From positions 708 through 64,707 of the forward strand of contig CAZXAN010000004.1 of assembly GCA_964638585.1 (NCBI GenBank): 64,000 nt of DNA, in the 5' to 3' direction. Under the pieces are notes generated by a model. It saw nothing but the letters and a program-made list of their open reading frames with translations, did not search any database and was not told where the DNA came from. A program made the translations under genes and the position numbers. The DNA is from an uncultured Candidatus Saccharibacteria bacterium. GTDB lineage: Bacteria > Patescibacteriota > Minisyncoccia > Phycocordibacterales > Phycocordibacteraceae. This document shows positions 21,882 through 53,977 of the stretch, piece after piece (position 1 is the first letter of the stretch; each line of letters opens with the position of its first letter).

Positions 21882-22219
21882 AGGTCCTTATCCTCAAACT
21901 TGCGCGGGATGAGGTGCATATGTACGTGAGGAACGTCCTTTCCAATTACTGAAATCTGTATGTAGTCGGCGCCAGTTTTATCCTTCAACTCCTTTGCAAT
22001 TTTACGTGCAACTTTAAATAGATCATTAGCAATATCGTCTGGCAACTCCCAGAACCACTGGTAATGGTCTCTAGGTACGACGAGCGTGTGCCCGGGCCGC
22101 ACGGGCTTATAGTCAGGGAACGAAACTATTCTGCCGTCTTCATGATGTGCCTTCTCGCTCGGAATTTCACCCGCAATAATTTTGCAAAAAATGCAGTTTT
22201 CCATCCATTCAGTATACAA
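21878..22219 (-). CDS. HIT-family (histidine triad) hydrolase
   Basis: HTLVVPRDH ... HVHMHLIP histidine triad. Confidence 0.8.
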   Translation of the reverse strand: MYTEWMENCIFCKIIAGEIPSEKAHHEDGRIVSFPDYKPVRPGHTLVVPRDHYQWFWELPDDIANDLFKVARKIAKELKDKTGADYIQISVIGKDVPHVHMHLIPRKFEDKDL

Positions 22220-22229
22220 TGTTCAGCAC

Positions 22230-23981
22230 ATGTTTCCGCTCCACGACCCGCTCACTGATTCTCTGCGTAAAGAACTGTCTGCGTATGACGACCTCACTTC
22301 TGCATTACTGGCGCGAAGAGGTGTCGTAACCAGAGCAGATGCTGAGAAATTTCTTAATCCCTCATATGACAATCATCTCTACGACCCGTTCTTAATGACT
22401 GATATGGAGAAAGCTTCGCATAGATTTGCAGACGCAATTTTATCGGGAGAAAAAATTGCAGTGTGGAGCGACTATGACTGCGACGGAATCCCAGGCGCTG
22501 TTCTTATGCACGACTTCTTAAAAAAAGTCGGGGCGAACTTTGAAAATTATATTCCGCACAGGCACAACGAAGGTTACGGCATGAATATTGGTGGGGTAGA
22601 GAGGTTGGCAAATACAGGTGTGAAACTGATAGTGACTGTAGATTCTGGAATCACCGATATCGAATCTGTATCACGAGCAAATGAATTAGGAATTGAAGTT
22701 ATTGTGACAGACCATCATTTGCCTGGAGATAACCTGCCGGAGGCATTCGCAATTCTCAATCCTAATGCCCGACCAGACGAGACATACCCGTTCAAAAGTC
22801 TCTGCGGGAGCGGGGTAGCATGGAAGCTCGTTTGCGCCACGATAACTCTGCTGAGAGAATCGAGCCCTACTTCGCCAAGGCTACGCAGGGCAACTGAGCT
22901 ACCGCTCAGTTGGGAGAAGTGGCTGTTGGACATGGTCGGTCTCGCGACTATCGCCGACATGGTGCCCCTCATAGACGAGAATCGCTTGCTCGCGAAATAC
23001 GGACTCCTCGTGATGCGTAAGTCGCCCCGGATAGGGCTCCAGAAATTGTGCCGGGGCATGCGGGTAGAACAGCGAACAATAACAGAAGATGATGTCGGCT
23101 TTATGATCGCACCGAGAGTGAATGCCGCGAGCCGGATGGGCGAAGCGCGTGATGCATTTACTCTTTTTACAACATCCGATGAAAACGAGGCTGACATGCT
23201 CGCTAAGAAGTTAGAGAAATTAAACAGATCCAGAAAAGCAGAAGCAGGTGCGATAACTCGCGCAGTGCACACACGAATCAAAGAACGCGGAGAATTGAGG
23301 AGCATAATCGCTATCGGCGACCCTGATTGGAAGCCCGCACTTCTGGGTCTTGTTGCCGGAAACATTGCGGACGAATTTGAACGGCCAGTATTCCTCTGGG
23401 GCAGAGAAGGAAATAATAGTCTGAAGGGTTCGTTTAGAAGCGGCGGCTCCACACAAGTAATGGAGCTCATCCGCACTACTGAAAATATGTTCGCGCAATT
23501 CGGCGGCCACGCGGCCGCCGGCGGTTTCACTCTCATAGATACTGAGGTATTTTTTTTAGAAGACCGTCTTGTTGAATCGCATGCAAAGTTAGTTAAAGAA
23601 GATGTAAGTGACGACCTGGCGATGCGTGCTGATGCGGTTGTCGCACCAGAAGAAATCAGCGTCGCATATTTGCGGGATGTGGAGAAGCTCGCCCCTTTTG
23701 GTATGCAGAATCCTAAACCTGTGTTTCTTCTGCGCTCTGCTCTTGTTCAAAACATTTCACGATTCGGCAAAGCAGAAGAGCATTTAAAATTAAAAATCGG
23801 CTCTGAAAATAGCGGTAAAGAAATAGATGCCGTCACTTTTTTTGTAAAAGGCCCCATCGCGCGTGCCGTTACTCAATTAGAAAAAGGTTCTCGCGCCAAC
23901 ATCCTCGCCCACATAGAGCGCGACACCTTCTATCGCACCAACCCCGTCCGCCTGCGACTTTTAGATATTCGGGCAGTATAG
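22230..23981 (+). CDS. recJ: single-stranded-DNA-specific exonuclease RecJ
   Basis: DHH motifs (DYDCDG, VTDHH) and DHHA1 (GGHAAAGG). Alternative start at 22182. Confidence 0.8.
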   Translation: MFPLHDPLTDSLRKELSAYDDLTSALLARRGVVTRADAEKFLNPSYDNHLYDPFLMTDMEKASHRFADAILSGEKIAVWSDYDCDGIPGAVLMHDFLKKVGANFENYIPHRHNEGYGMNIGGVERLANTGVKLIVTVDSGITDIESVSRANELGIEVIVTDHHLPGDNLPEAFAILNPNARPDETYPFKSLCGSGVAWKLVCATITLLRESSPTSPRLRRATELPLSWEKWLLDMVGLATIADMVPLIDENRLLAKYGLLVMRKSPRIGLQKLCRGMRVEQRTITEDDVGFMIAPRVNAASRMGEARDAFTLFTTSDENEADMLAKKLEKLNRSRKAEAGAITRAVHTRIKERGELRSIIAIGDPDWKPALLGLVAGNIADEFERPVFLWGREGNNSLKGSFRSGGSTQVMELIRTTENMFAQFGGHAAAGGFTLIDTEVFFLEDRLVESHAKLVKEDVSDDLAMRADAVVAPEEISVAYLRDVEKLAPFGMQNPKPVFLLRSALVQNISRFGKAEEHLKLKIGSENSGKEIDAVTFFVKGPIARAVTQLEKGSRANILAHIERDTFYRTNPVRLRLLDIRAV

Positions 23982-24029: not shown

Positions 24030-24437
24030 CTAGTTCGCCCTCCCACCGCACATCTCGAGTAAAATGCCGATCAGTTCCGGCGGAGCATCTTCGAATTCCA
24101 ACTCTAGCCTGGCGTTGCCGTTATGTTTCTCAATGCAATCAGATATGAGTTGGACAAAGAAGGCAAACTTGATACGCATTCTATCATCAAGGTTACCGAA
24201 GTAGTTGATGCCCGTTATTCCTTCGTGGGTGAAGACATCTTCATTCCCCGCCCGTATCTCGAAACGCTGCTTCCACCGCCACCCTTTCCGAATCGCAGTA
24301 TATCGAACATCAAGACTTCGACTAAGAATGAGCTCGCCTTGTTCTCTAGCTTCTAAGATCAGAGGCCCGCTGACGACTGTTTCTGTTCTTCTTACTCCAT
24401 TCGCTCCCTTAAGCTTCATATCAGCAAAAAATTCCAT
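24030..24437 (-). CDS. hypothetical protein
   Basis: 135-aa ORF from MEFFADMKLKG; no recognisable family by eye. Confidence 0.4.
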   Translation of the reverse strand: MEFFADMKLKGANGVRRTETVVSGPLILEAREQGELILSRSLDVRYTAIRKGWRWKQRFEIRAGNEDVFTHEGITGINYFGNLDDRMRIKFAFFVQLISDCIEKHNGNARLELEFEDAPPELIGILLEMCGGRAN

Positions 24438-24534
24438 CGTGGCTTTCCTTCCAATAAATACGGGAACACTCCCGTTCTGCCGCCAGAGTACCCCCGCAAA
24501 GCTCGAAGTCAACTCTAGGTGTATAGTAAGCGAG

Positions 24535-24951
24535 ATGAAATTCACTATTCATGCTGATGGGGGGTCGAGAGGGAACCCGGGGCCCGCTGGCTCGGGTGCT
24601 GTCTTGCGCGACGAGCTCGGGAACATCGTCGCTACGGTCTCCGAGTATCTCGGTCGACGCACGAATAATTATGCTGAATACGAGGCTGTTATCCTGGCAC
24701 TTGAAAAGGTACACGAGCTCGCTAAGGGCGAGCTCGGAGATACTGCAGTGATGGTAAAGCTGGACAGCGAACTCGTTGTGAAGCAGATGAACGGTATCTA
24801 CAAAATCAAACACCCTGATATGCGTGCACAAGCCGCACGACTTAAAGAGCTCGCGGCGCCATTCGGTCTCATCAAATTCGCACACGTCCCTCGCGAACAG
24901 AACAGCGACGCCGACGCCCTCGCCAACGAAGCGATGGACCGTGGTGCTTAA
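24535..24951 (+). CDS. rnhA: ribonuclease HI
   Basis: MKFTIHADGGSRGNPGPAG...NNYAEYEA...VKGH-like...REQNSDADALAN: RNase H catalytic DEDD context. Confidence 0.8.
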   Translation: MKFTIHADGGSRGNPGPAGSGAVLRDELGNIVATVSEYLGRRTNNYAEYEAVILALEKVHELAKGELGDTAVMVKLDSELVVKQMNGIYKIKHPDMRAQAARLKELAAPFGLIKFAHVPREQNSDADALANEAMDRGA

Positions 24952-24954
24952 AAT

Positions 24955-25695
24955 ATGTCTGACTATGCCGCTAAAAACGCATTGTCATATGACTCCCATG
25001 CAGAGGAATGGGAGTCAACGATACCAGTAAACCTAGCGCACAAATACATGGAGAAACCGGCAATGGTTACACTCTTGCCGAAAGACCTTCACAGAAAATC
25101 AGCCCTTTGTGTTGGTGTTGGATCGGGAGAAGAATTAGATTCGCTATTTGATAGGGGAGCAGAAAACGTAACTGCAATTGATATATCTAACGAGTTGTTG
25201 AAACGCGCTGCAATAAAATTTCCTACTGTTAAATACCACAAAATGGACATGATGAATCTGTCATTCGCTGACGAATCGTTTGACCTAATATATTCAAGTT
25301 TAGCCTTTCATTATTCCGACGATTGGGACCAACTTCTGAGTGGCCTATATAGAGTGCTTAAGAAGGACGGCATTTTGCTTTTCTCTACTCACAGACCAGA
25401 GTTTTGGGAGAAAAAGAAGAAAACAGGGGATATCGCTACCAACAAAAGAGGTGTTACTCTCGTAGGACATAGAGACATCTTGCCCGGGAATGTTGAGATT
25501 TTCTTTTATAACCATACTGACACAAATGCCGTACTTGAGAGCATTACCAACGCAGGATTTACTATTCAGTCGATAAGTTCGCCCTCCATGATTAAACCCG
25601 ACTCGGCAGACATTTTTGATCACGAGCATTATGACGCATTAAATCAAAAGAATCTTGAGAACCCATTATTCCTTGTTATTCTCGCTTCCAAGTAA
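24955..25695 (+). CDS. class I SAM-dependent methyltransferase
   Basis: Motif I LCVGVGSGEE, motif II/III DESFDLIYSS, methyltransferase type 11 pattern. Confidence 0.7.
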   Translation: MSDYAAKNALSYDSHAEEWESTIPVNLAHKYMEKPAMVTLLPKDLHRKSALCVGVGSGEELDSLFDRGAENVTAIDISNELLKRAAIKFPTVKYHKMDMMNLSFADESFDLIYSSLAFHYSDDWDQLLSGLYRVLKKDGILLFSTHRPEFWEKKKKTGDIATNKRGVTLVGHRDILPGNVEIFFYNHTDTNAVLESITNAGFTIQSISSPSMIKPDSADIFDHEHYDALNQKNLENPLFLVILASK

Positions 25696-25788
25696 TTGGC
25701 CGTGTAAACATTCTTACCTACGTTGTTTCTGGATTTGCGAGCGGGGTGTTTGCGTAACCATTTTTCTACTCCACAGCAACTATCCCCA

Positions 25789-25810
25789 ACTTGTCGCTAT
25801 AACGACAAGT
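25789..25810. promoter_or_regulatory. 22 bp palindromic putative operator, copy 1 (ACTTGTCGCTATAACGACAAGT)
   Basis: Near-perfect palindrome about 30 nt upstream of the PaaX-like gene start; repeated perfectly at 26461-26482 with the same 3' extension CTTTGATA. Confidence 0.45.
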
Positions 25811-25840
25811 CTTTGATACCTCTAAAGTTAAAATAGTGGT

Positions 25841-26425
25841 ATGGGATTAATGGAAAAGAAGGCACGGAGTGAGCGCAGATGGGGAACGTTTCAAAAAGCA
25901 ATGCTCACGGCCGTTGTGCTCGGTGGTGTCGTGGTTGTCGCTGCGACAATACCTAATGTTGCTCAACTTCTAAAGTATTTCCCCGGCCACAAGAAAGGTG
26001 CAAAGTTTAACTACCAAGCGAAGTCCGCGCTCGGACGACTTGCAACGAAAGGTCTGGTTACTTTTGTTGAGAAAAACGGCAAGCGTTTTGCACGTATAAC
26101 AGAAAAAGGGGAACGTGTACTCCAGATGGAGACAGAGCGAACGGCAATGACGAAAAAGAGACGGTGGGACAGACGCTGGCGTGTTGTAGCATTTGACGTG
26201 CCTGAGAAACGAAAGAATGTACGCACAAGCCTCCGTCGATTTATGAGTGAGTATGGGTTCGCAAGGTTACAAGATAGCGTATGGATTTATCCATATGATT
26301 GCGAAGATCTAATCGCCCTAGCGAAGGCTAACTTCCGTATCGGCTCTGACGTTCTCTATATGATTGTGGAGCGTCTTGAAAATGACAAACATTTACGCTC
26401 CCATTTCTCTCTTCCCGTCGAATAG
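25841..26425 (+). CDS. PaaX-like transcriptional regulator (wHTH + PaaX middle domain), putative
   Basis: wHTH (GRLATKGLVTFVEKNGKRFARITEKGERVL) followed by RRWRVVAFDVPEKRKNVRTSLRRFMSEYGFARLQDSVWIYPYD, resembling the PaaX domain after its wHTH. Confidence 0.45.
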   Translation: MGLMEKKARSERRWGTFQKAMLTAVVLGGVVVVAATIPNVAQLLKYFPGHKKGAKFNYQAKSALGRLATKGLVTFVEKNGKRFARITEKGERVLQMETERTAMTKKRRWDRRWRVVAFDVPEKRKNVRTSLRRFMSEYGFARLQDSVWIYPYDCEDLIALAKANFRIGSDVLYMIVERLENDKHLRSHFSLPVE

Positions 26426-26460
26426 GTAGCGCCACTGGACTAAGAGTGCGGGTATCCACA

Positions 26461-26482
26461 ACTTGTCGCTATAGCGACAAGT
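26461..26482. promoter_or_regulatory. 22 bp perfect palindromic putative operator, copy 2 (ACTTGTCGCTATAGCGACAAGT)
   Basis: Perfect palindrome 50 nt upstream of the comEC start codon; same flanks as copy 1. Confidence 0.45.
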
Positions 26483-26531
26483 CTTTGATAGTCCGTAATT
26501 TACGGCTGGTGCGGCTTGCTACGATAGGAGC

Positions 26532-28028
26532 ATGGGAATGCTTATTGCCGTCACTTCCGGATTCGCAGGCGGGGTGTTTGCGAGGTCACTACTGTTTGAA
26601 AACTGGTGGCCGGTTTTATTTTTTATTCTGCTCGCGGCGCTGATTGGCGCTTTTGCTTTTTTGAAACCGCGCCTTGCGTACTCGCTTGGCGCGGTTTTCT
26701 GCGTGTGCGTGGCGCTCGGCATGGTGAGGTCGGCTGTTGCTGATACTCCGCTGCCACAAACATTTGTCGCTGACTTGAAACATCGCGTGCAATATGAAGG
26801 AGTTGTTGTGAGTGATCCTGATGTACGCGAAAAGAATCAACGTATTGGGATCGTCGTTGAAAAAGAAGGGGAGAAGGTTGGCGCACTCGCGGTGATGCCT
26901 CTCTCTGCAAATGTGCGCGTCGGCGACCGCGTGCGCGTGTACGGGACACTCTCGCTCCCACAAGCATTCGAGACAGATAACGGTCGCACTTTTCGTTATG
27001 ATAAATATCTGGAGGCACGCGGTATTCGTTTCTTAATTCAATATGGTTCTATTTATAGGACAGAATCTGCTCCATGGTATTCACTCCCTGCCACGCTTGC
27101 GCGTATTAAACACTCATTCTTAGATGGTCTTGCCCGTGCACTGCCGAATCCTGATTCAGCGCTCGCCGGTGGCATCGTCATAGGAGGGAAGGAGGGGTTA
27201 GGCACGGCACTTAAAGAGGCATTCACACGTTCGGGGCTTGTGCAGATCATAGTACTCTCTGGATACAACGTGATGATCGTCGCTGAGTGGGTGATGGCCT
27301 TCTTTGCGCTTCTCGCCCTCCCGCGTCGCCTTCAGTTCTTCGCCGGCGGGGCAGCGCTTCTCCTCTTTGTCGGTATTGCAGGCATATCTGCCACAGCGGT
27401 GCGCGCCGCGATAATGGCAGTGATCGCGCTCTACGCACGCGCGACCGGGCGCTCTTACGCCGCAAGCCGCGCCCTCTTATTTGCTGTTCTGTTGATGCTT
27501 GTGTGGAATCCTCTCTATCTCGTTTTTGATCCGGGCTTCGGCCTCTCGGTAGCCGCGACCGCCGGCATCATCTGGCTGGCTCCAATTATTGAATCTCGTC
27601 TTATGCGACTGTGGCCTTTCTTGAGAAATGTGGTTGCGACTACTCTCGCCGCACAAATTTCAGTTTTACCGTTACTCCTCTACAACATCGGACTTTTCTC
27701 GCTCGTCGCCCTGCCGGCGAATCTCCTCGTCAATCCTGTTGTGCCACTTGCGATGGCGTGGGCAGCCGTAGCGGGCATCGTAGGAATGACCCTTGGGGCT
27801 TTCGTTCCTGTCCTCGCCACCATCGTTGGATATCCTCTCTTTATCATCACGCGCTATTTCATATTTATTGCAGAGAAAAGTTCGGCACTCCCTTTTGCCG
27901 CATTCAATCTCCCGCTATTTTCATTTTGGCTCGTTCTTGTCGCGTATGCAGGATTAATTTATTTAGCGAGGTCAAAACGTTTCTCCACTACAGACCAATT
28001 CAAATTCGCGAAGAAAGCGTCAATGTAG
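26532..28028 (+). CDS. comEC: DNA internalization-related competence protein ComEC/Rec2 (no C-terminal metallo-beta-lactamase domain)
   Basis: Polytopic membrane protein with competence domain (GGIVIGGKEGLG...GLVQIIVLSGYNVMIV); TAGGAG RBS. Confidence 0.8.
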   Translation: MGMLIAVTSGFAGGVFARSLLFENWWPVLFFILLAALIGAFAFLKPRLAYSLGAVFCVCVALGMVRSAVADTPLPQTFVADLKHRVQYEGVVVSDPDVREKNQRIGIVVEKEGEKVGALAVMPLSANVRVGDRVRVYGTLSLPQAFETDNGRTFRYDKYLEARGIRFLIQYGSIYRTESAPWYSLPATLARIKHSFLDGLARALPNPDSALAGGIVIGGKEGLGTALKEAFTRSGLVQIIVLSGYNVMIVAEWVMAFFALLALPRRLQFFAGGAALLLFVGIAGISATAVRAAIMAVIALYARATGRSYAASRALLFAVLLMLVWNPLYLVFDPGFGLSVAATAGIIWLAPIIESRLMRLWPFLRNVVATTLAAQISVLPLLLYNIGLFSLVALPANLLVNPVVPLAMAWAAVAGIVGMTLGAFVPVLATIVGYPLFIITRYFIFIAEKSSALPFAAFNLPLFSFWLVLVAYAGLIYLARSKRFSTTDQFKFAKKASM

Positions 28029-28558
28029 TTTTTCTTTTCTGCAGGCACATAATCAACCATATAGGCGTGCTCCCAGAGGTCTAGAGCGAGCAGTATCGGT
28101 AGCCCCGCGAGCTGGCCGACTTCGTGATCACCAACAAACGTTGTGTGAATAGTGTTCGCAACAGGATCTTTGTAAACCACCACCCAGCCGATGCCTCGTG
28201 TATTCGCAACGCTGCGAATGTGATCTTCTAGACTCATTTCTCCGTATTTTTCTTTTGCCGCATTTGCTAGGGCGCTGTCTGCCGTGAGGGAGGTCTGACC
28301 TCCCTCAAACTGCGAGAAGTATAGTTCGTGCATGCGCATGCCGTTAAACTCAAATGCATAACGGCGGCGCATCTCAGTAGTCGCGTACTTATCACCCTCT
28401 GTTGCTTTGTCGCCATAGGCCGCATAGCCCTTGAGCGTTTCCGCGATAAGGTTCACGTGCTTCACATAGCCCTCATAAAGCGCGAGATGTACTTTTATCT
28501 GTTTCTCTGACAATCCCTGCAGGGCAGGTAGGTTAAACGTTTTGGCTGTGTATGTCAT
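27959..28558 (-). CDS. sodA: Fe/Mn superoxide dismutase
   Basis: LPALQGLSEKQIKVHL...HH...DLWEHAYM...NWSVVEKRF C-terminus typical of Fe/Mn SOD. Confidence 0.85.
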   Translation of the reverse strand: MTYTAKTFNLPALQGLSEKQIKVHLALYEGYVKHVNLIAETLKGYAAYGDKATEGDKYATTEMRRRYAFEFNGMRMHELYFSQFEGGQTSLTADSALANAAKEKYGEMSLEDHIRSVANTRGIGWVVVYKDPVANTIHTTFVGDHEVGQLAGLPILLALDLWEHAYMVDYVPAEKKNYIDAFFANLNWSVVEKRFDLAK

Positions 28559-28621
28559 AGACCTAAAATGTACCACACCCGCTTGCGTGGATGTGTTTGG
28601 GGACACGCGATGTTCCCGGCT

Positions 28622-29868: not shown

Positions 29869-30309
29869 TTGGTAATGGAGTATCAGGTACCGCAGTTCAT
29901 TGAGGTAGAGAGCAAGGTTGTTGGGACACTGACCCTGCGACAGTTTATCTACGTTGCCGGCGGGGCAGGGCTTTGTGTTGTCTTCTTTATTTATTTGCCA
30001 ATCGTATTTGCTTTTCTTCTTTCTGCTCCTGTCGCTGGCCTCGCAGTGGCCCTATCTTTTTACAAAGTAAACGGCAAACCATTTATTGAGATGCTTGAAG
30101 CCGCGTTTAATTACTACATAAGAGGCAAACTCTTTCTGTGGAAGCATAAAGACCTTAGTGCGAAAGAGAGAAATACAGCCGCCGCCGCAGCGGCGGCGGC
30201 TGAGGCAACTTCACTAGAATCTCGCGAGACGCCCAAGCTCACGAGAGGAAAACTCTCGGAGTTGGCATGGTCCCTAGATGTCTCTACCGGAGACATACAA
30301 AGAAAGTAA
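29869..30309 (+). CDS. PrgI/VirB3-like small membrane protein of a type IV secretion-like system
   Basis: 146 aa, two adjacent TM helices (QFIYVAGGAGLCVVFFIYLPIVFAFLLSAPVAGLAVALSF) then charged tail with poly-Ala; directly precedes the VirB4-like ATPase, as prgI/virB3 does. Confidence 0.5.
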   Translation: MVMEYQVPQFIEVESKVVGTLTLRQFIYVAGGAGLCVVFFIYLPIVFAFLLSAPVAGLAVALSFYKVNGKPFIEMLEAAFNYYIRGKLFLWKHKDLSAKERNTAAAAAAAAEATSLESRETPKLTRGKLSELAWSLDVSTGDIQRK

Positions 30310-30310
30310 T

Positions 30311-30964
30311 ATGGCTACAAAACCAGCAAGAGCAACTCAACAATTCGTTCCGGTCAAAGAGATCAGGAACGGCACTATCGTACTTAAAGATGGTGGGTAT
30401 CGCGGTATTTTACTTTGTTCGTCTATCAACTTTGGCCTCAAGTCTGCCGACGAACAACACGCTATTACGCTCGGCTTCCAGAACTTTCTCAATACGCTAG
30501 ATTTTTCTATTCAGATTGTGATTAATTCACGCAAGATGGACCTGCGCCCGTACCTCACTCTGCTACAAGATAAAACAACAGAGCAAAAAACTGAACTCAT
30601 GAAGATACAGTTGCGTGAGTATGTTGAGTTCGTACGTTCTTTTGCTGACCAGGCGAACATTATGACAAAATCCTTTTATATAGTTGTTCCATATTCTTCA
30701 CACATGTCTGCGGTGAGTACGCTTAACTTTTTACAGCACTTGCCTGGTAGCAAGTCTGCTAACACATCAGACAAAAATGCACTGGCCAAAACTTCGTTTG
30801 AAGAGGATCGGGCACAGCTTGAACAAAGACTCTCTCTCGTCATCGCCGGCCTCTCTGGCACTGGAGTCCGCGCAGTTGCACTCGGTACCGAAGAGGTAAT
30901 AGAGCTTTTGTACAGGTCATTTAACCCTGGCGAACTAGAGAATCCTATTCGCCTAGATCAATAA
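30311..30964 (+). CDS. VirB4/TraC-like ATPase, N-terminal part (separate ORF)
   Basis: 217-aa ORF ending TAA three nt before the ATG of the ATPase-domain ORF; with the next ORF gives about 825 aa, typical VirB4 length. Confidence 0.5.
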   Translation: MATKPARATQQFVPVKEIRNGTIVLKDGGYRGILLCSSINFGLKSADEQHAITLGFQNFLNTLDFSIQIVINSRKMDLRPYLTLLQDKTTEQKTELMKIQLREYVEFVRSFADQANIMTKSFYIVVPYSSHMSAVSTLNFLQHLPGSKSANTSDKNALAKTSFEEDRAQLEQRLSLVIAGLSGTGVRAVALGTEEVIELLYRSFNPGELENPIRLDQ

Positions 30965-30966
30965 AT

Positions 30967-32793
30967 ATGTCTTTACTTGATTTTATTTCACGAAAAAAAG
31001 ATAAGGAGGAGCCGACTATAGTGCCGGTCTTACCAAGAGATATTTACAAACAAGGCTCTCTAGATCTTGTAGATACTATCGCTCCTACAGCTCTTAAGAT
31101 AGGCTCGCGCGAGATAGAGCTCGGCGAGAAGTTTGCCCGTGCCTTTTACACTATCTCTTATCCTAGATTCTTAACCGACAGTTGGTTCTCGCCTGTCATT
31201 AATCTAGACAAGGTTCTAGACGTCTCTCTATTCATCCACCCTATAGATACTGCACAGGCTCTGCGTGGATTCCAAAAGAAGGTAGCCGAAGTGCAGAGCC
31301 AGATCAACGAACGTGAGGCCAAAGGACTTGTTCGCGACCCACTTCTAGACACTGCTTACCAAGACCTTGAGAGCTTGCGCGACAATCTGCAACAAGCACA
31401 AGAAAAGCTCTTTGACGTTGGTCTATATATCGCATTATATGGCGATTCTAAAGAAGAGATTGATAAGACAGAAGGTGATATCCGTGGGATTCTTGACGCC
31501 AAGCTCGTCTACACCAAGCCAGCCCTCTTCCAACAAGAACAAGGGTTTCGGTCTTGTCTCCCTCTCGGCACTGACGAGCTTCTTGTAAATTCAAAATTAA
31601 ACTCCTCACCCCTATCTTCTATATTCCCGTTTGTTTCTTTTGACTTAACAAGTGACAGAGGAATTCTCTATGGGATAAACAGACACAACTCTTCACTCAT
31701 ACTTTTTGATCGATTTTCACTAGAGAACTACAACTCTGTGGTCTTCGCCAAGTCTGGCTCTGGCAAGAGCTACGCAACAAAGTTAGAGATACTGCGTTCT
31801 CTAATGTTCGGTACAAATGTTATCGTCATTGATCCAGAGCGCGAATACGAACAGCTCGCCGAGTCTACGGGAGGTCGTTCGTTCCACATATCTCTCTCGT
31901 CAGAGCATCACATCAACCCATTTGATCTCCCGCCGGTTAAAGAAGATGAAGACCCTAAGGATATTCTGCGTTCAAACATTATTTCTCTTGTAGGACTATT
32001 CCGCATTATGCTATCTGGCCTTAGCCCAGAAGAAGACGCGATAATTGATCGAGCTATCAGCGAGACTTATGCGCTAAAAGATATCACGGGCGATACAGAC
32101 TTTACCGGCGCAGAGCCTCCTCTCATTTCTGACTTTGAACAAGTGCTTTCTGGTATGGAAGGAAGCGAGTCATTGGTTGAACGACTCTCTAAGTACACGC
32201 GAGGGAGCTGGGCTGGATTCCTCAATCAGCCAACAAATATAGACTTAACTCAGCAATTTGAAGTATTCTCTGTGCGTGATATGGAGGACGAGCTGAAGCC
32301 GGTCGCGATGTATATAATCACTCACTATATCTGGAATGCTGTGCGCCATGAGATGAAAAAACGTTTACTGATTATAGACGAGGCGTGGTGGATGATGAAG
32401 AGCGATGACACTGCGTCCTTCTTATATTCTGTTGCAAAAAGAGGCAGAAAGTATTACTTGGGAGTCTGCACAATTACACAAGACGTTGAAGACTTCTTAA
32501 AGAGCCCATACGGCCGTCCTATCCTTACAAACTCTTCTCTGCAATTATTGTTGAAGCAGTCGCCAACTACAATAGATGTTTTACAAAAAACTTTTAACTT
32601 AACGGATGAGGAAAAATACTTATTGCTGGAGGCCGGAGTAGGAGAGGGGCTCTTCTTTGCGGGACTGAAACACGTAGCGATTAAGGTTATCGCAAGCTAC
32701 ACAGAAGACCAGATAATTACATCTGATCCATCCCAACTCCTCGCGATAAAAGAAGGCAAAGAACGACATGCTGCAGAAGACCAAAAGAAGTGA
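30967..32793 (+). CDS. VirB4/TrbE/PrgJ-like type IV secretion ATPase (ATPase domain)
   Basis: Walker A VVFAKSGSGKSYAT, Walker B LLIIDEAWWMM, downstream conserved VirB4-type motifs. Confidence 0.75.
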   Translation: MSLLDFISRKKDKEEPTIVPVLPRDIYKQGSLDLVDTIAPTALKIGSREIELGEKFARAFYTISYPRFLTDSWFSPVINLDKVLDVSLFIHPIDTAQALRGFQKKVAEVQSQINEREAKGLVRDPLLDTAYQDLESLRDNLQQAQEKLFDVGLYIALYGDSKEEIDKTEGDIRGILDAKLVYTKPALFQQEQGFRSCLPLGTDELLVNSKLNSSPLSSIFPFVSFDLTSDRGILYGINRHNSSLILFDRFSLENYNSVVFAKSGSGKSYATKLEILRSLMFGTNVIVIDPEREYEQLAESTGGRSFHISLSSEHHINPFDLPPVKEDEDPKDILRSNIISLVGLFRIMLSGLSPEEDAIIDRAISETYALKDITGDTDFTGAEPPLISDFEQVLSGMEGSESLVERLSKYTRGSWAGFLNQPTNIDLTQQFEVFSVRDMEDELKPVAMYIITHYIWNAVRHEMKKRLLIIDEAWWMMKSDDTASFLYSVAKRGRKYYLGVCTITQDVEDFLKSPYGRPILTNSSLQLLLKQSPTTIDVLQKTFNLTDEEKYLLLEAGVGEGLFFAGLKHVAIKVIASYTEDQIITSDPSQLLAIKEGKERHAAEDQKK

Positions 32794-53143: not shown

Positions 53144-53977
53144 ATGAAAGATTTCAAAGACCACTGTATATCCTTGCGAAAGACAGGGCACAGCATTATT
53201 GAAATTATGAGAGCAACAGGTAGAGCAAAAAGTTCTATATATACGCACATAAAAGACATTCCATTAAGCAAGGAACGCTTAAAAGAAGTAAAGAAAGCTT
53301 CTGGAGAGCGGATTAGGAAATTCGCAATAGCACGAAAAGGGAAGAGTAAACGAGATTTCAGTTCATTTCAAAAATGGACACCAGAGACAGTCTCTTTAGT
53401 TGCGCACCTCATTTTTGACGGTGGCATTTATCCTAAAAGCGGATGCACATACAACAATCGCAGTAAAACTCTGATAAATCATGTAGAAGAATGCATGCGT
53501 CTTATTTATGTGTTTGAGCCGACGCAGTACACCAATCCAGGGACTGGTGTACTGCGAATTAGCTATCACAATGTAGCTCTTGCTATATATATGAAGAAGA
53601 AGGCTAGAGAGTTATTGCATAAAATACTGCACACACCTTTAAATCTCAAAAGGGAATTTGTCAGGGCTTTTTTTGACGACGAGGGATGTATAGACTACCG
53701 CCCGGAAAAAAATAGACGGAGTATTCGTGGTTATCAGAAGGATGCGAAGATACTTCATATAACTCAGAGACTCTTGCAAGATTTTAGTATTGAATCGCGG
53801 ATTGTTCTTCCGAATGAGGTCGTCATCGTAGGGAAAGAGAATCTGATGAAGTTTAGAAAAGAAATAGATTTTTCTCCTGGCGTGTATGTGAATGGAAAAC
53901 GTTCAAACAGCAGATGGAAGAAACACATAGAAAAAAGGGAATTGCTCAGACGAGCGATAGAATCCTTTAAAAATTAG
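53144..53977 (+). mobile_element. double-motif LAGLIDADG homing endonuclease gene, free-standing, 2 nt after tRNA-Lys
   Basis: Two LAGLIDADG-type motifs (LVAHLIFDGGIY and FVRAFFDDEGCI) about 100 aa apart, N-terminal HTH-like segment; ATG at 53144 immediately follows the tRNA 3' end. Confidence 0.7.

Follow-up and report, generated by a model that had tools for sequence, protein, structure and literature searches.

PaaX-type transcriptional regulators combine an N-terminal winged helix with a Cas2-like dimerisation domain, as seen in the structures of the Escherichia coli protein (PDB 8A39), of a PaaX-like protein from Jannaschia (3L09), and of Rv0674 (3KFW). The E. coli protein, of 316 amino acids (aa), also has an aryl-CoA-binding domain, PaaX_C; its site is TGATTC-N27-GAATCA, 39 bp long, and it represses its own promoter by steric hindrance (PMC9493321). 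Here we describe a smaller protein, REG, encoded in a 64-kb stretch of DNA from an uncultured Candidatus Saccharibacteria bacterium (contig CAZXAN010000004.1; the whole stretch is referred to as the window), where its gene stands directly upstream of the gene for the DNA-uptake channel, comEC, and is bracketed by two copies of a 38-nucleotide (nt) palindrome. REG resembles PaaX in its two domains, in its long putative operator, whose conserved outer blocks form inverted hexamers about three helical turns apart (TATCCA-N26-TGGATA, 38 bp), and in having a site at its own promoter, where binding is predicted from the sequence. It differs in its length of 194 aa, in the absence of PaaX_C and of paa genes nearby, in palindromic symmetry that covers the whole 38 bp and not just the distal hexamers as in the PaaX site, and in the presence of sites on both sides of the gene.

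An earlier, sequence-only reading of the window had put REG forward as a probable dedicated regulator of competence. The finding proves to be real and more general than that reading could see: the locus exemplifies a family of 'mini-PaaX' proteins found across Patescibacteria, each accompanied by long palindromes of its own. We regard it as fairly probable that REG is an autoregulated DNA binder of the PaaX type that also acts on comEC, to which it is not dedicated.

The palindromes and the regulator

Both palindromes lie exactly where the sequence-only reading had placed them (Table 1), within a repeat that is longer than was claimed: 38 nt, with 36 of 38 positions identical between the two copies. 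Each copy is an imperfect 19 + 19 palindrome with the halves TATCCACAACTTGTCGCTA and TAGCGACAAGTCTTTGATA, and the 22-nt core inside it has one mismatch in palindrome 1 (ACTTGTCGCTATAACGACAAGT) and none in palindrome 2 (ACTTGTCGCTATAGCGACAAGT). The spacing to the genes agrees as well, as the cores end 30 nt before the ATG of REG and 49 nt before that of comEC, where ~30 and 50 nt had been given. Measured from the centres of the 38-nt elements, the distances to the two start codons are 41.5 and 60.5 nt, and palindrome 2 begins 28 nt past the stop codon of REG. No direct repeats in the whole window are longer than this pair of palindromes and a pair of comEC 5' repeats, considered below. A search for the core at up to three mismatches gave these two matches in 64 kb and none in 100 shuffles, and the exact 20-mer core was found in 19 stretches of a metagenome collection, with REG adjoining it in five; in the sequence covered, the element thus does not look like a generic repeat, a point that had been singled out for checking.

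Table 1. Features of the REG-comEC locus, with positions in the window.
Feature	Position	Strand	Basis or proposed role
Decayed comEC promoter-proximal and 5' coding copy ('frag1')	25690..25757	+	Core repeat 25710-25754
Palindrome 1, 38 nt (22-nt core 25789-25810)	25781..25818	.	Proposed autoregulatory operator
-10-like TAAAAT, 6 nt before REG ATG	25829..25834	+	Putative leaderless promoter, read from sequence
Regulator gene REG, 194 aa	25841..26425	+	Pfam, NCBIfam, AF2, Foldseek, profile vs PDB
Palindrome 2, 38 nt (perfect 22-nt core 26461-26482)	26453..26490	.	Proposed second operator
-10-like TACGAT, 6 nt before comEC ATG	26520..26525	+	Putative leaderless promoter, read from sequence
comEC, 498 aa, DUF4131 and Competence domains	26532..28028	+	Pfam; start from alignment with relatives

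The protein is made up of a winged helix-turn-helix (residues ~15-87), a linker helix, and a Cas2-like ferredoxin-fold domain (~113-176). Its description as a PaaX-like winged-helix regulator with a segment resembling the PaaX middle domain is borne out by Pfam PF20803 (PaaX_M), the sole Pfam domain found, which matches residues 107-179 with 69.9 bits against a cutoff of 24 (E=2e-19). The Pfam model for the PaaX N-terminal domain gave no match, and the winged-helix region was instead aligned to PaaX by a family profile and by an AlphaFold2 (AF2) model. Comparison of a profile of 22 diverse members with the PDB returned E. coli PaaX 8A39 (E=0.0095), with residues 60-147 placed on PaaX 57-141, an alignment that runs from the recognition helix and wing across the linker helix into the first part of the Cas2-like domain. 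This took the family profile, as phmmer searches of the PDB with whole REG or with its Cas2-like domain alone gave nothing useful. A first AF2 run on a shallow alignment (72-100% identity) reached a mean confidence (predicted local distance difference test, pLDDT) of 52 and was discarded in favour of a model built on a diverse 50-sequence alignment (pLDDT 82). This model has a helix at 3-28, a strand at 30-32, helices at 40-46 and 54-69, a beta-hairpin wing at 73-86, the linker helix at 88-104, and a beta-alpha-beta-beta-alpha-beta domain at 113-176. Foldseek placed 8A39 first among PDB structures (E=5e-5, 184 aligned columns), followed by Rv0674, the Jannaschia protein, several Cas2 structures, and PadR-type winged helices. 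Taken together, the Pfam, profile, AF2, and Foldseek results indicate that REG is a 'mini-PaaX', a winged helix with a Cas2-like dimerisation domain and without the PaaX effector domain. It is not a PaaX orthologue, since PaaX_C has no match in REG, which ends 15-20 residues past the Cas2-like domain, and the TIGR02277 equivalog model for PaaX scores only 40.2 bits against a cutoff of 264.55. The N-terminal transmembrane helix proposed earlier gave way in this comparison: the hydrophobic segment aligns with the first helix of the PaaX winged helix and, unusually hydrophobic as it is and modelled with lower confidence (pLDDT 68-75), is likelier to be helix 1 of the winged helix than a membrane anchor.

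The middle domain of REG shares with Cas2 the ferredoxin-like fold and a sequence signature, and differs from it in being fused to a winged helix. Scores fall on either side of the thresholds (TIGR01573 cas2, 27.4 bits against 24.5; Pfam CRISPR_Cas2, 21.9 against 23.8), the Cas2 models covering the first 37-50 residues of the domain, and PADLOC reported weak Cas2 model matches (5e-7) and no defence system. The 64-kb window is free of CRISPR arrays, and the annotated neighbours in the window and five related loci include no cas gene. Public records label most members of the family, which numbers at least 2,703 proteins at E <= 1e-5, as 'CRISPR-associated endonuclease Cas2', because the TIGR01573 score lies just over its threshold. 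This name is most likely a misannotation, and one that would make CRISPR components seem more numerous in these genomes than they are. Across homologues of 38-100% identity the invariant residues include F118-D119, at the end of strand 1, and W148-x-Y-P-Y-D-C-E155. The catalytic Asp of Cas2 sits at the end of strand 1. The longer segment S-V-W-I-Y-P-Y-D-C-E (REG 146-155, window 26276-26305) is invariant or nearly so down to 38% identity and holds one invariant cysteine between acidic residues, a degree of conservation that exceeds the needs of a plain dimerisation surface. By the source names of the homologues the family appears restricted to Patescibacteria, and the organism of the window falls among Kaiserbacteria-like Paceibacteria within that group; the family is not phage-borne, with one distant match in the viral contigs searched, and literature searches found no description of the family or of its palindromes.

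Bracketing by palindromes extends well beyond the window. It was followed in 87 related loci (here numbered with the prefix L), of which 80 came from a scan of species-representative genomes (homologues of 38-83% identity) and seven from look-ups of close relatives. Nearly every homologue has a palindrome on both sides. The centre of the palindrome reads CTATAG or CGGTCG/CGACCG, lengths of 38-50 nt are common, and the symmetry is frequently perfect. Most homologues of more than 60% identity have the upstream centre 40-43 nt ahead of the start codon, and many of the distant homologues have it at -17 or -35; on the other side of the gene, the centre lies 20-70 nt past the stop codon. The two copies at one locus are alike, and the sequences differ between loci and also between the paralogues of one genome, of which many genomes carry several. 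Counting was anchored on the 6-nt centre motif alone, in loci fetched through the protein: around the 139 distinct centres within 130 nt of a homologue, 11.9 of 16 flanking pairs are complementary, compared with 4.2 of 16 around the 615 occurrences of the same motifs elsewhere in these loci (chance = 4). Palindrome 2 of the window is therefore not a by-product of local duplication. The arrangement palindrome-gene-palindrome is the standard layout of the family, seen in unrelated contexts, and not something specific to the comEC locus.

Other palindromes were also seen. A further type, GTACCTT-N-ACGCTATAGCGT-N-AAGGTAC (L093:1370-1460, L095:390-480, L015:100-140), has, in two loci, a palindrome of the window type ~50 nt away and no intervening REG gene. 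In the window, the only other long palindrome-like element is a 34-nt hairpin-forming inverted repeat at 53523-53556 (CGCAGTACACCAATCCAGGGACTGGTGTACTGCG), the sequence of which is unrelated to the REG sites.

The comEC locus with and without the regulator

Four other loci (L081, L101, L105, L106) carry a REG 86-90% identical to that of the window, in the same order of comEC 5' copy, palindrome, REG, palindrome, and comEC, and with a palindrome identical to that of the window ~60 nt upstream of comEC. The sequence-only reading had suggested looking for relatives with a comEC promoter free of the insertion, and four such loci were found (L092, L096, L102, L104). Their comEC is 60% identical to that of the window, and they run from the RNase H gene through a gene that varies to the palindrome, a hicB-like gene, and comEC, with no REG at comEC and with the identical 38-mer centred 67 nt upstream of the hicB-like start. 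Two more (L093, L098) have the same flank on contigs that end before comEC. A regulatory link between REG and comEC is plausible because these REG-less loci keep the identical palindrome before the hicB-like gene and comEC. The palindrome looks like a cis element that stays with the comEC unit both where the REG gene adjoins and where it does not, which matches the prediction for a trans-acting factor; a regulator residing elsewhere while comEC is unchanged, which had been taken to speak against the proposal, becomes support for it once the palindrome is seen to be retained. The same comparison removes the idea of a regulator dedicated to competence. Relatives of REG that are 80-84% identical and have the same palindrome lie between dnaE and an RNase HII gene, some of them in samples that also contain REG-less comEC loci (a match at the level of samples, not of genomes), and the exact palindrome occurs at other loci as well.

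The diverged copy of the comEC 5' end that had been described upstream of REG is also present. Positions 25710-25754 and 26538-26582 are 73% identical over 45 nt (21 of 24 in the last 24 nt), with a local alignment score 9.7 standard deviations above shuffles, and the fragment copies codons 3-17 of comEC. In the window it has lost its start codon (now ATT) and its -10 box, the former position of which is overlapped by the stop codon of the upstream methyltransferase gene, and it runs into a TAA stop at 25755-25757. L081, L101, and L106 retain the -10 box, the ATG, and an open reading frame (ORF) of 23-33 codons, and L105 has kept the ATG and the copied codons without a recognisable -10 box. 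The five upstream fragments were aligned with the five real comEC starts and with REG-less comEC. The fragments share ATGAG-TCCT-ATCGCCATCGT and are nearer to the REG-less comEC start (ATGAGTATCCTCATCGCC) than to the comEC starts that the window, L101, L105, and L106 have today (ATGGGnATTCTTATTGCC), which points towards the upstream copy as the original start of comEC. In L081, L105, and L106 the fragment matches the real gene almost perfectly over some stretches and shares genome-specific variants with it (e.g. GCGGAGTGTTCC in both L105 copies), a pattern that indicates gene conversion between them. The layout and the fragment sequence are common to five genomes, and the duplication is therefore older than their divergence.

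These observations would fit a duplicative insertion, for example Campbell-type or homology-facilitated integration of DNA that carried the cassette together with a comEC 5' end. An old event of this kind in the lineage of the window would have brought the cassette into the leader and 5' end of comEC and left the original promoter and start upstream, to be partly homogenised with comEC in the relatives and to decay in the window. Transcripts from the promoter retained in the relatives might still read through palindrome 1 into REG. Of the earlier proposal that the regulator was inserted into the comEC promoter region, the cassette beside a pseudo-copy stands, with the layout recurring in four relatives, and the creation of palindrome 2 by the insertion does not, given the rule seen across the family. 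Target-site-like duplications outside the palindromes, sought at all loci, were found in the comEC lineage only. The gene upstream of the fragment is different in each of the five genomes, being a methyltransferase in the window and, in the others, an AAA_33 kinase, a protein with DnaA_C/sigma-70 region 4, DUF2726, and NUDIX + SET. The interval from the RNase H gene to the fragment (window 24952-25700; also L081, L101, L105, L106, and L093) is a local hotspot of gene turnover.

The comEC gene itself is well defined, with Pfam matches to Competence (3.8e-43) and DUF4131 (1.1e-13) and a start codon that is backed by alignment with the relatives. Its product has these two domains only and is without a metallo-beta-lactamase domain. 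Upstream on the plus strand the order is recJ (22182-23981), the RNase H gene (ending at 24951), a class I methyltransferase gene (24955-25695), REG, and comEC. Between recJ and the RNase H gene, on the minus strand, lies a 171-aa ORF without a Pfam match (24030-24545); in L055, L060, and L071 this slot is occupied by a REG paralogue with its own palindromes. Downstream of comEC, on the opposite strand, are the genes for superoxide dismutase and ribosomal protein L28, followed by a gene for an M50 protease and then a type IV secretion-like cluster. The 3' end of comEC overlaps the convergent superoxide dismutase ORF (27959-28606) by 70 nt. The type IV secretion-like cluster (29869-32793; PrgI-like, TraC-like, and a VirB4 of the CD1110 family) begins ~2 kb 3' of comEC and is syntenic in L081, L092, L096, and L102.

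Promoter geometry, proposed mechanism and alternatives

The promoters of the two genes can be read from the sequence only by way of -10-like hexamers. In the window, the TAAAAT box of REG is joined to the ATG at 25841 by the spacer AGTGGT, and TAGAAT with a 6-nt spacer takes its place in L081 and L101; the layout of a -10 box, 6 nt, and ATG at REG is found in L094, L099, and L103 as well as in these two. For comEC, TACGAT and the spacer AGGAGC precede the ATG at 26532, and TAGGAT with a 6-nt spacer occupies the same place in the four relatives. A TANNNT hexamer stands 5-8 nt before the candidate start of 32 of the 69 genes in the window (e.g. 25829-25843, 26520-26534, 20053, 29869) compared with 4.6% of internal candidate codons, and a Shine-Dalgarno-like motif is present in only 18 of the 69. 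The hexamer frequency makes leaderless transcription plausible, and leaderless mRNAs may be common in this organism. With the predicted leaderless starts, the 38-bp element would extend from about -60 to -23 at the REG promoter, where it covers the -35 region, and from about -79 to -42 at the comEC promoter. The right outer arm, TTGATA, was considered as a -35 box and ruled out by its spacers to the -10 boxes, which are 10 and 29 nt. Scans for sigma-70 and terminator consensus sequences gave nothing at either palindrome, and an Rfam scan gave a chance-level mir-30 match alone (E=0.05). In five of the loci in which a PD-(D/E)XK nuclease gene follows a REG paralogue (L008, L013, L017, L021, L022), the palindrome ends 3 nt before the -10 box of the nuclease gene (TATACT/TATAAT), which is a classical position for occlusion. 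Between palindrome 2 and the -10 box of comEC the window also has a 13-nt palindrome (26493-26505, CCGTAATTTACGG); the equivalent place in the four close relatives is occupied by another sequence, conserved among them, TTTCTCTGAAAACTCTTTGTTAGGAT.

A mechanism that is consistent with these features can be outlined. Most likely, a dimer of REG binds the 38-bp palindromes TATCCA-N26-TGGATA, which have the inner core ACTTGTCGCTATAGCGACAAGT. Palindrome 1 overlaps the -35 region of the apparently leaderless REG promoter, which would provide autoregulation. Palindrome 2, past the stop codon of REG and ~60 bp upstream of the comEC start, would place comEC under the same control. As the same site recurs at a few other loci, one of them before a PD-(D/E)XK nuclease gene, comEC would belong to a small regulon. 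Paralogues have palindrome sequences of their own.

Several observations weigh against this proposal. The transcription starts are taken solely from the -10-like hexamers, neither the REG nor the comEC promoter has a recognisable -35 box, and the comEC site, at about -60, is not in a classical repressor position. This geometry leaves the sign of regulation undecided, and the word 'repressor' would be used by analogy with PaaX alone. REG is without an effector domain and so has no known modulator. Mutual information between protein columns and the type of palindrome centre (CTATAG compared with CGGTCG) showed no clear determinant in the recognition helix, no residue of which clearly follows palindrome type, and the best columns were scattered and confounded by phylogeny. 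About one-third of the exact-match solo sites (L086, L087, L088, L090, L097, L100) have no obvious gene downstream. The downstream palindrome of L004, L058, and L069 has convergent genes on its two sides and therefore is no promoter operator there; it may serve in looping or roadblocking at the regulator's own gene, or it may have a structural role. When the upstream and downstream copies of one locus are compared, 26 compensated double changes are found along with 23 single and seven uncompensated double changes. A dimer gains nothing from a compensating change in a half-site, so that either self-complementarity is itself selected, as for a hairpin or cruciform, or the arms are mechanically homogenised. 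A plain model of dimer and operator leaves this maintained symmetry of the arms unexplained.

The convergent-gene sites, and the fact that compensated double changes are as frequent as single ones, favour an account in which the palindromes act as structures, be it DNA cruciforms, single-strand hairpins, or RNA hairpins (terminators or insulators), perhaps recognised or cut by the Cas2-like domain of REG. In keeping with this, self-complementarity is perfect over 38-50 nt and includes positions that vary between loci, the predicted RNA hairpins are stable (-12 and -19.9 kcal/mol, z ~ -5), and the Cas2-like signature is kept, with TIGR01573 over its cutoff and both D119 at the end of strand 1 and the YPYDCE motif invariant. 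However, the hairpins are not followed by a U-tract, and no terminator is listed at these sites. Mismatches in the arms are balanced (24 G-T and 21 A-C) and without the strand bias expected of an RNA stem, which argues against such a stem on one strand, and the upstream palindrome would lie outside the REG transcript if the leaderless promoter is correct. The window and its relatives conserve an asymmetric, oriented version of the outer arms (CCACA...CTTTG) that breaks the hairpin, a feature that favours sequence-specific recognition over pure structure, and the length of the site and its distal half-sites fit the PaaX type of operator. We consider the structural account unlikely as a replacement for regulation by DNA binding; a structural or nuclease role of the palindromes and the Cas2-like domain may be compatible with it. 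Either way, long palindromes with compensated symmetry form a separate puzzle, and could report on hairpin and cruciform biology in genomes with minimal repair.

The unit of palindrome, REG, and palindrome could also be a small mobile or recombining cassette, with the flanking palindromes as its recombination ends, solo palindromes as its footprints or targets and the comEC fragment as a target duplication, an arrangement reminiscent of REP/RAYT elements, in which a gene likewise stands between two palindrome copies and solo copies occur elsewhere in the genome. Relatives 80-90% identical are indeed found at different loci (comEC, dnaE/RNase HII, and others), many genomes have several paralogues, a direct repeat of the target, 45-82 nt long, stands on either side of the cassette in the window, and exact palindromes occur alone, even at the orthologous comEC site that lacks REG. 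Against this, flanking duplication was scored only in the window and L081 among loci with usable flanks; the repeat of L101, L105, and L106 is the same one of the comEC lineage, and other lineages have none. The HUH/Y1 transposase of RAYT systems is absent from REG, where only PaaX_M, Cas2, and winged-helix signals are found and no transposase or recombinase domain. REP copies run into the hundreds compared with a handful of REG palindromes in the sequence covered (two in 64 kb), and the latter keep fixed positions relative to start codons. The family is essentially absent from viral contigs, and its contexts are better explained by paralogous groups with their own palindrome types. L005 and L006 have two differently symmetric sites (A/A', B/B'), which are not hybrid recombination sites. 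Site-specific recombination with hybrid attL/attR sites was ruled out by these individually symmetric sites and by the two identical asymmetric sites of the window. Overall, we judge mobility a very improbable explanation of the layout.

A possible regulon and comparison with known systems

Sites apart from a bracketed REG gene give some indication of what else might be controlled. The 87 protein-anchored loci contain about nine clear solo sites. L089 has the exact palindrome upstream of a PD-(D/E)XK (Cas4-like) nuclease gene, and two 38-mers of the CGGTCG type follow in tandem. The three different 38-nt palindromes (L089:6210-6330) lie head to tail, and all have the ends TATCCA...TGGATA; it looks from the sequence as if several paralogous regulators converge on this one promoter. 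In L094 the exact palindrome lies between divergent genes for REG and a putative nucleotidyltransferase, and in L095 it precedes a 62-codon ORF.

Genes that adjoin REG across the family have much in common. The most frequent neighbours encode a PD-(D/E)XK nuclease (8 loci), RmuC (6), RNase HII (5), DnaE (4), an ExoX-like exonuclease (4), RecJ (3; L055, L060, L071), RNase HI (2), and ComEC (2, or 5 with L101, L105, and L106), counts that are not independent, as many of the loci are orthologous. They come down to five distinct contexts, all of them in DNA metabolism, which is suggestive of a functional theme. A tentative and rather doubtful extension is that the 'Cas2'-annotated proteins of 190-200 aa in Paceibacteria form an orthogonal mini-PaaX family, each with private perfect palindromes of 38-50 bp, that jointly controls genes for the uptake and processing of DNA. 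The targets of such a network would be comEC, the PD-(D/E)XK nuclease gene, and the RNase HII gene, possibly with the neighbouring genes for RecJ, RmuC, and ExoX, and the Cas2-like domain might, beyond dimerising, sense or act on extruded hairpin or cruciform DNA. If true, this would be the first network proposed for the regulation of competence and DNA repair in the candidate phyla radiation.

To our knowledge, next to nothing has been learned of how Patescibacteria regulate their genes. One cultivated member has been shown to undergo natural transformation that depends on ComEC, in a paper that names no regulator of comEC (PMC10187176). The present locus offers a concrete pair of protein and site and, in REG, a first candidate for the control of genes for DNA uptake and DNA repair in this group. 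The analogy proposed here is with the LexA/SOS regulons, ComK, and TfoX/Sxy, in that an autoregulated factor would act through a palindromic box found at its own gene and at genes for DNA uptake or repair. These systems differ from REG in having unrelated folds, and the regulon of REG is proposed from a few conserved sites only; in fold and in the type of its putative operator, its likeness is to PaaX.

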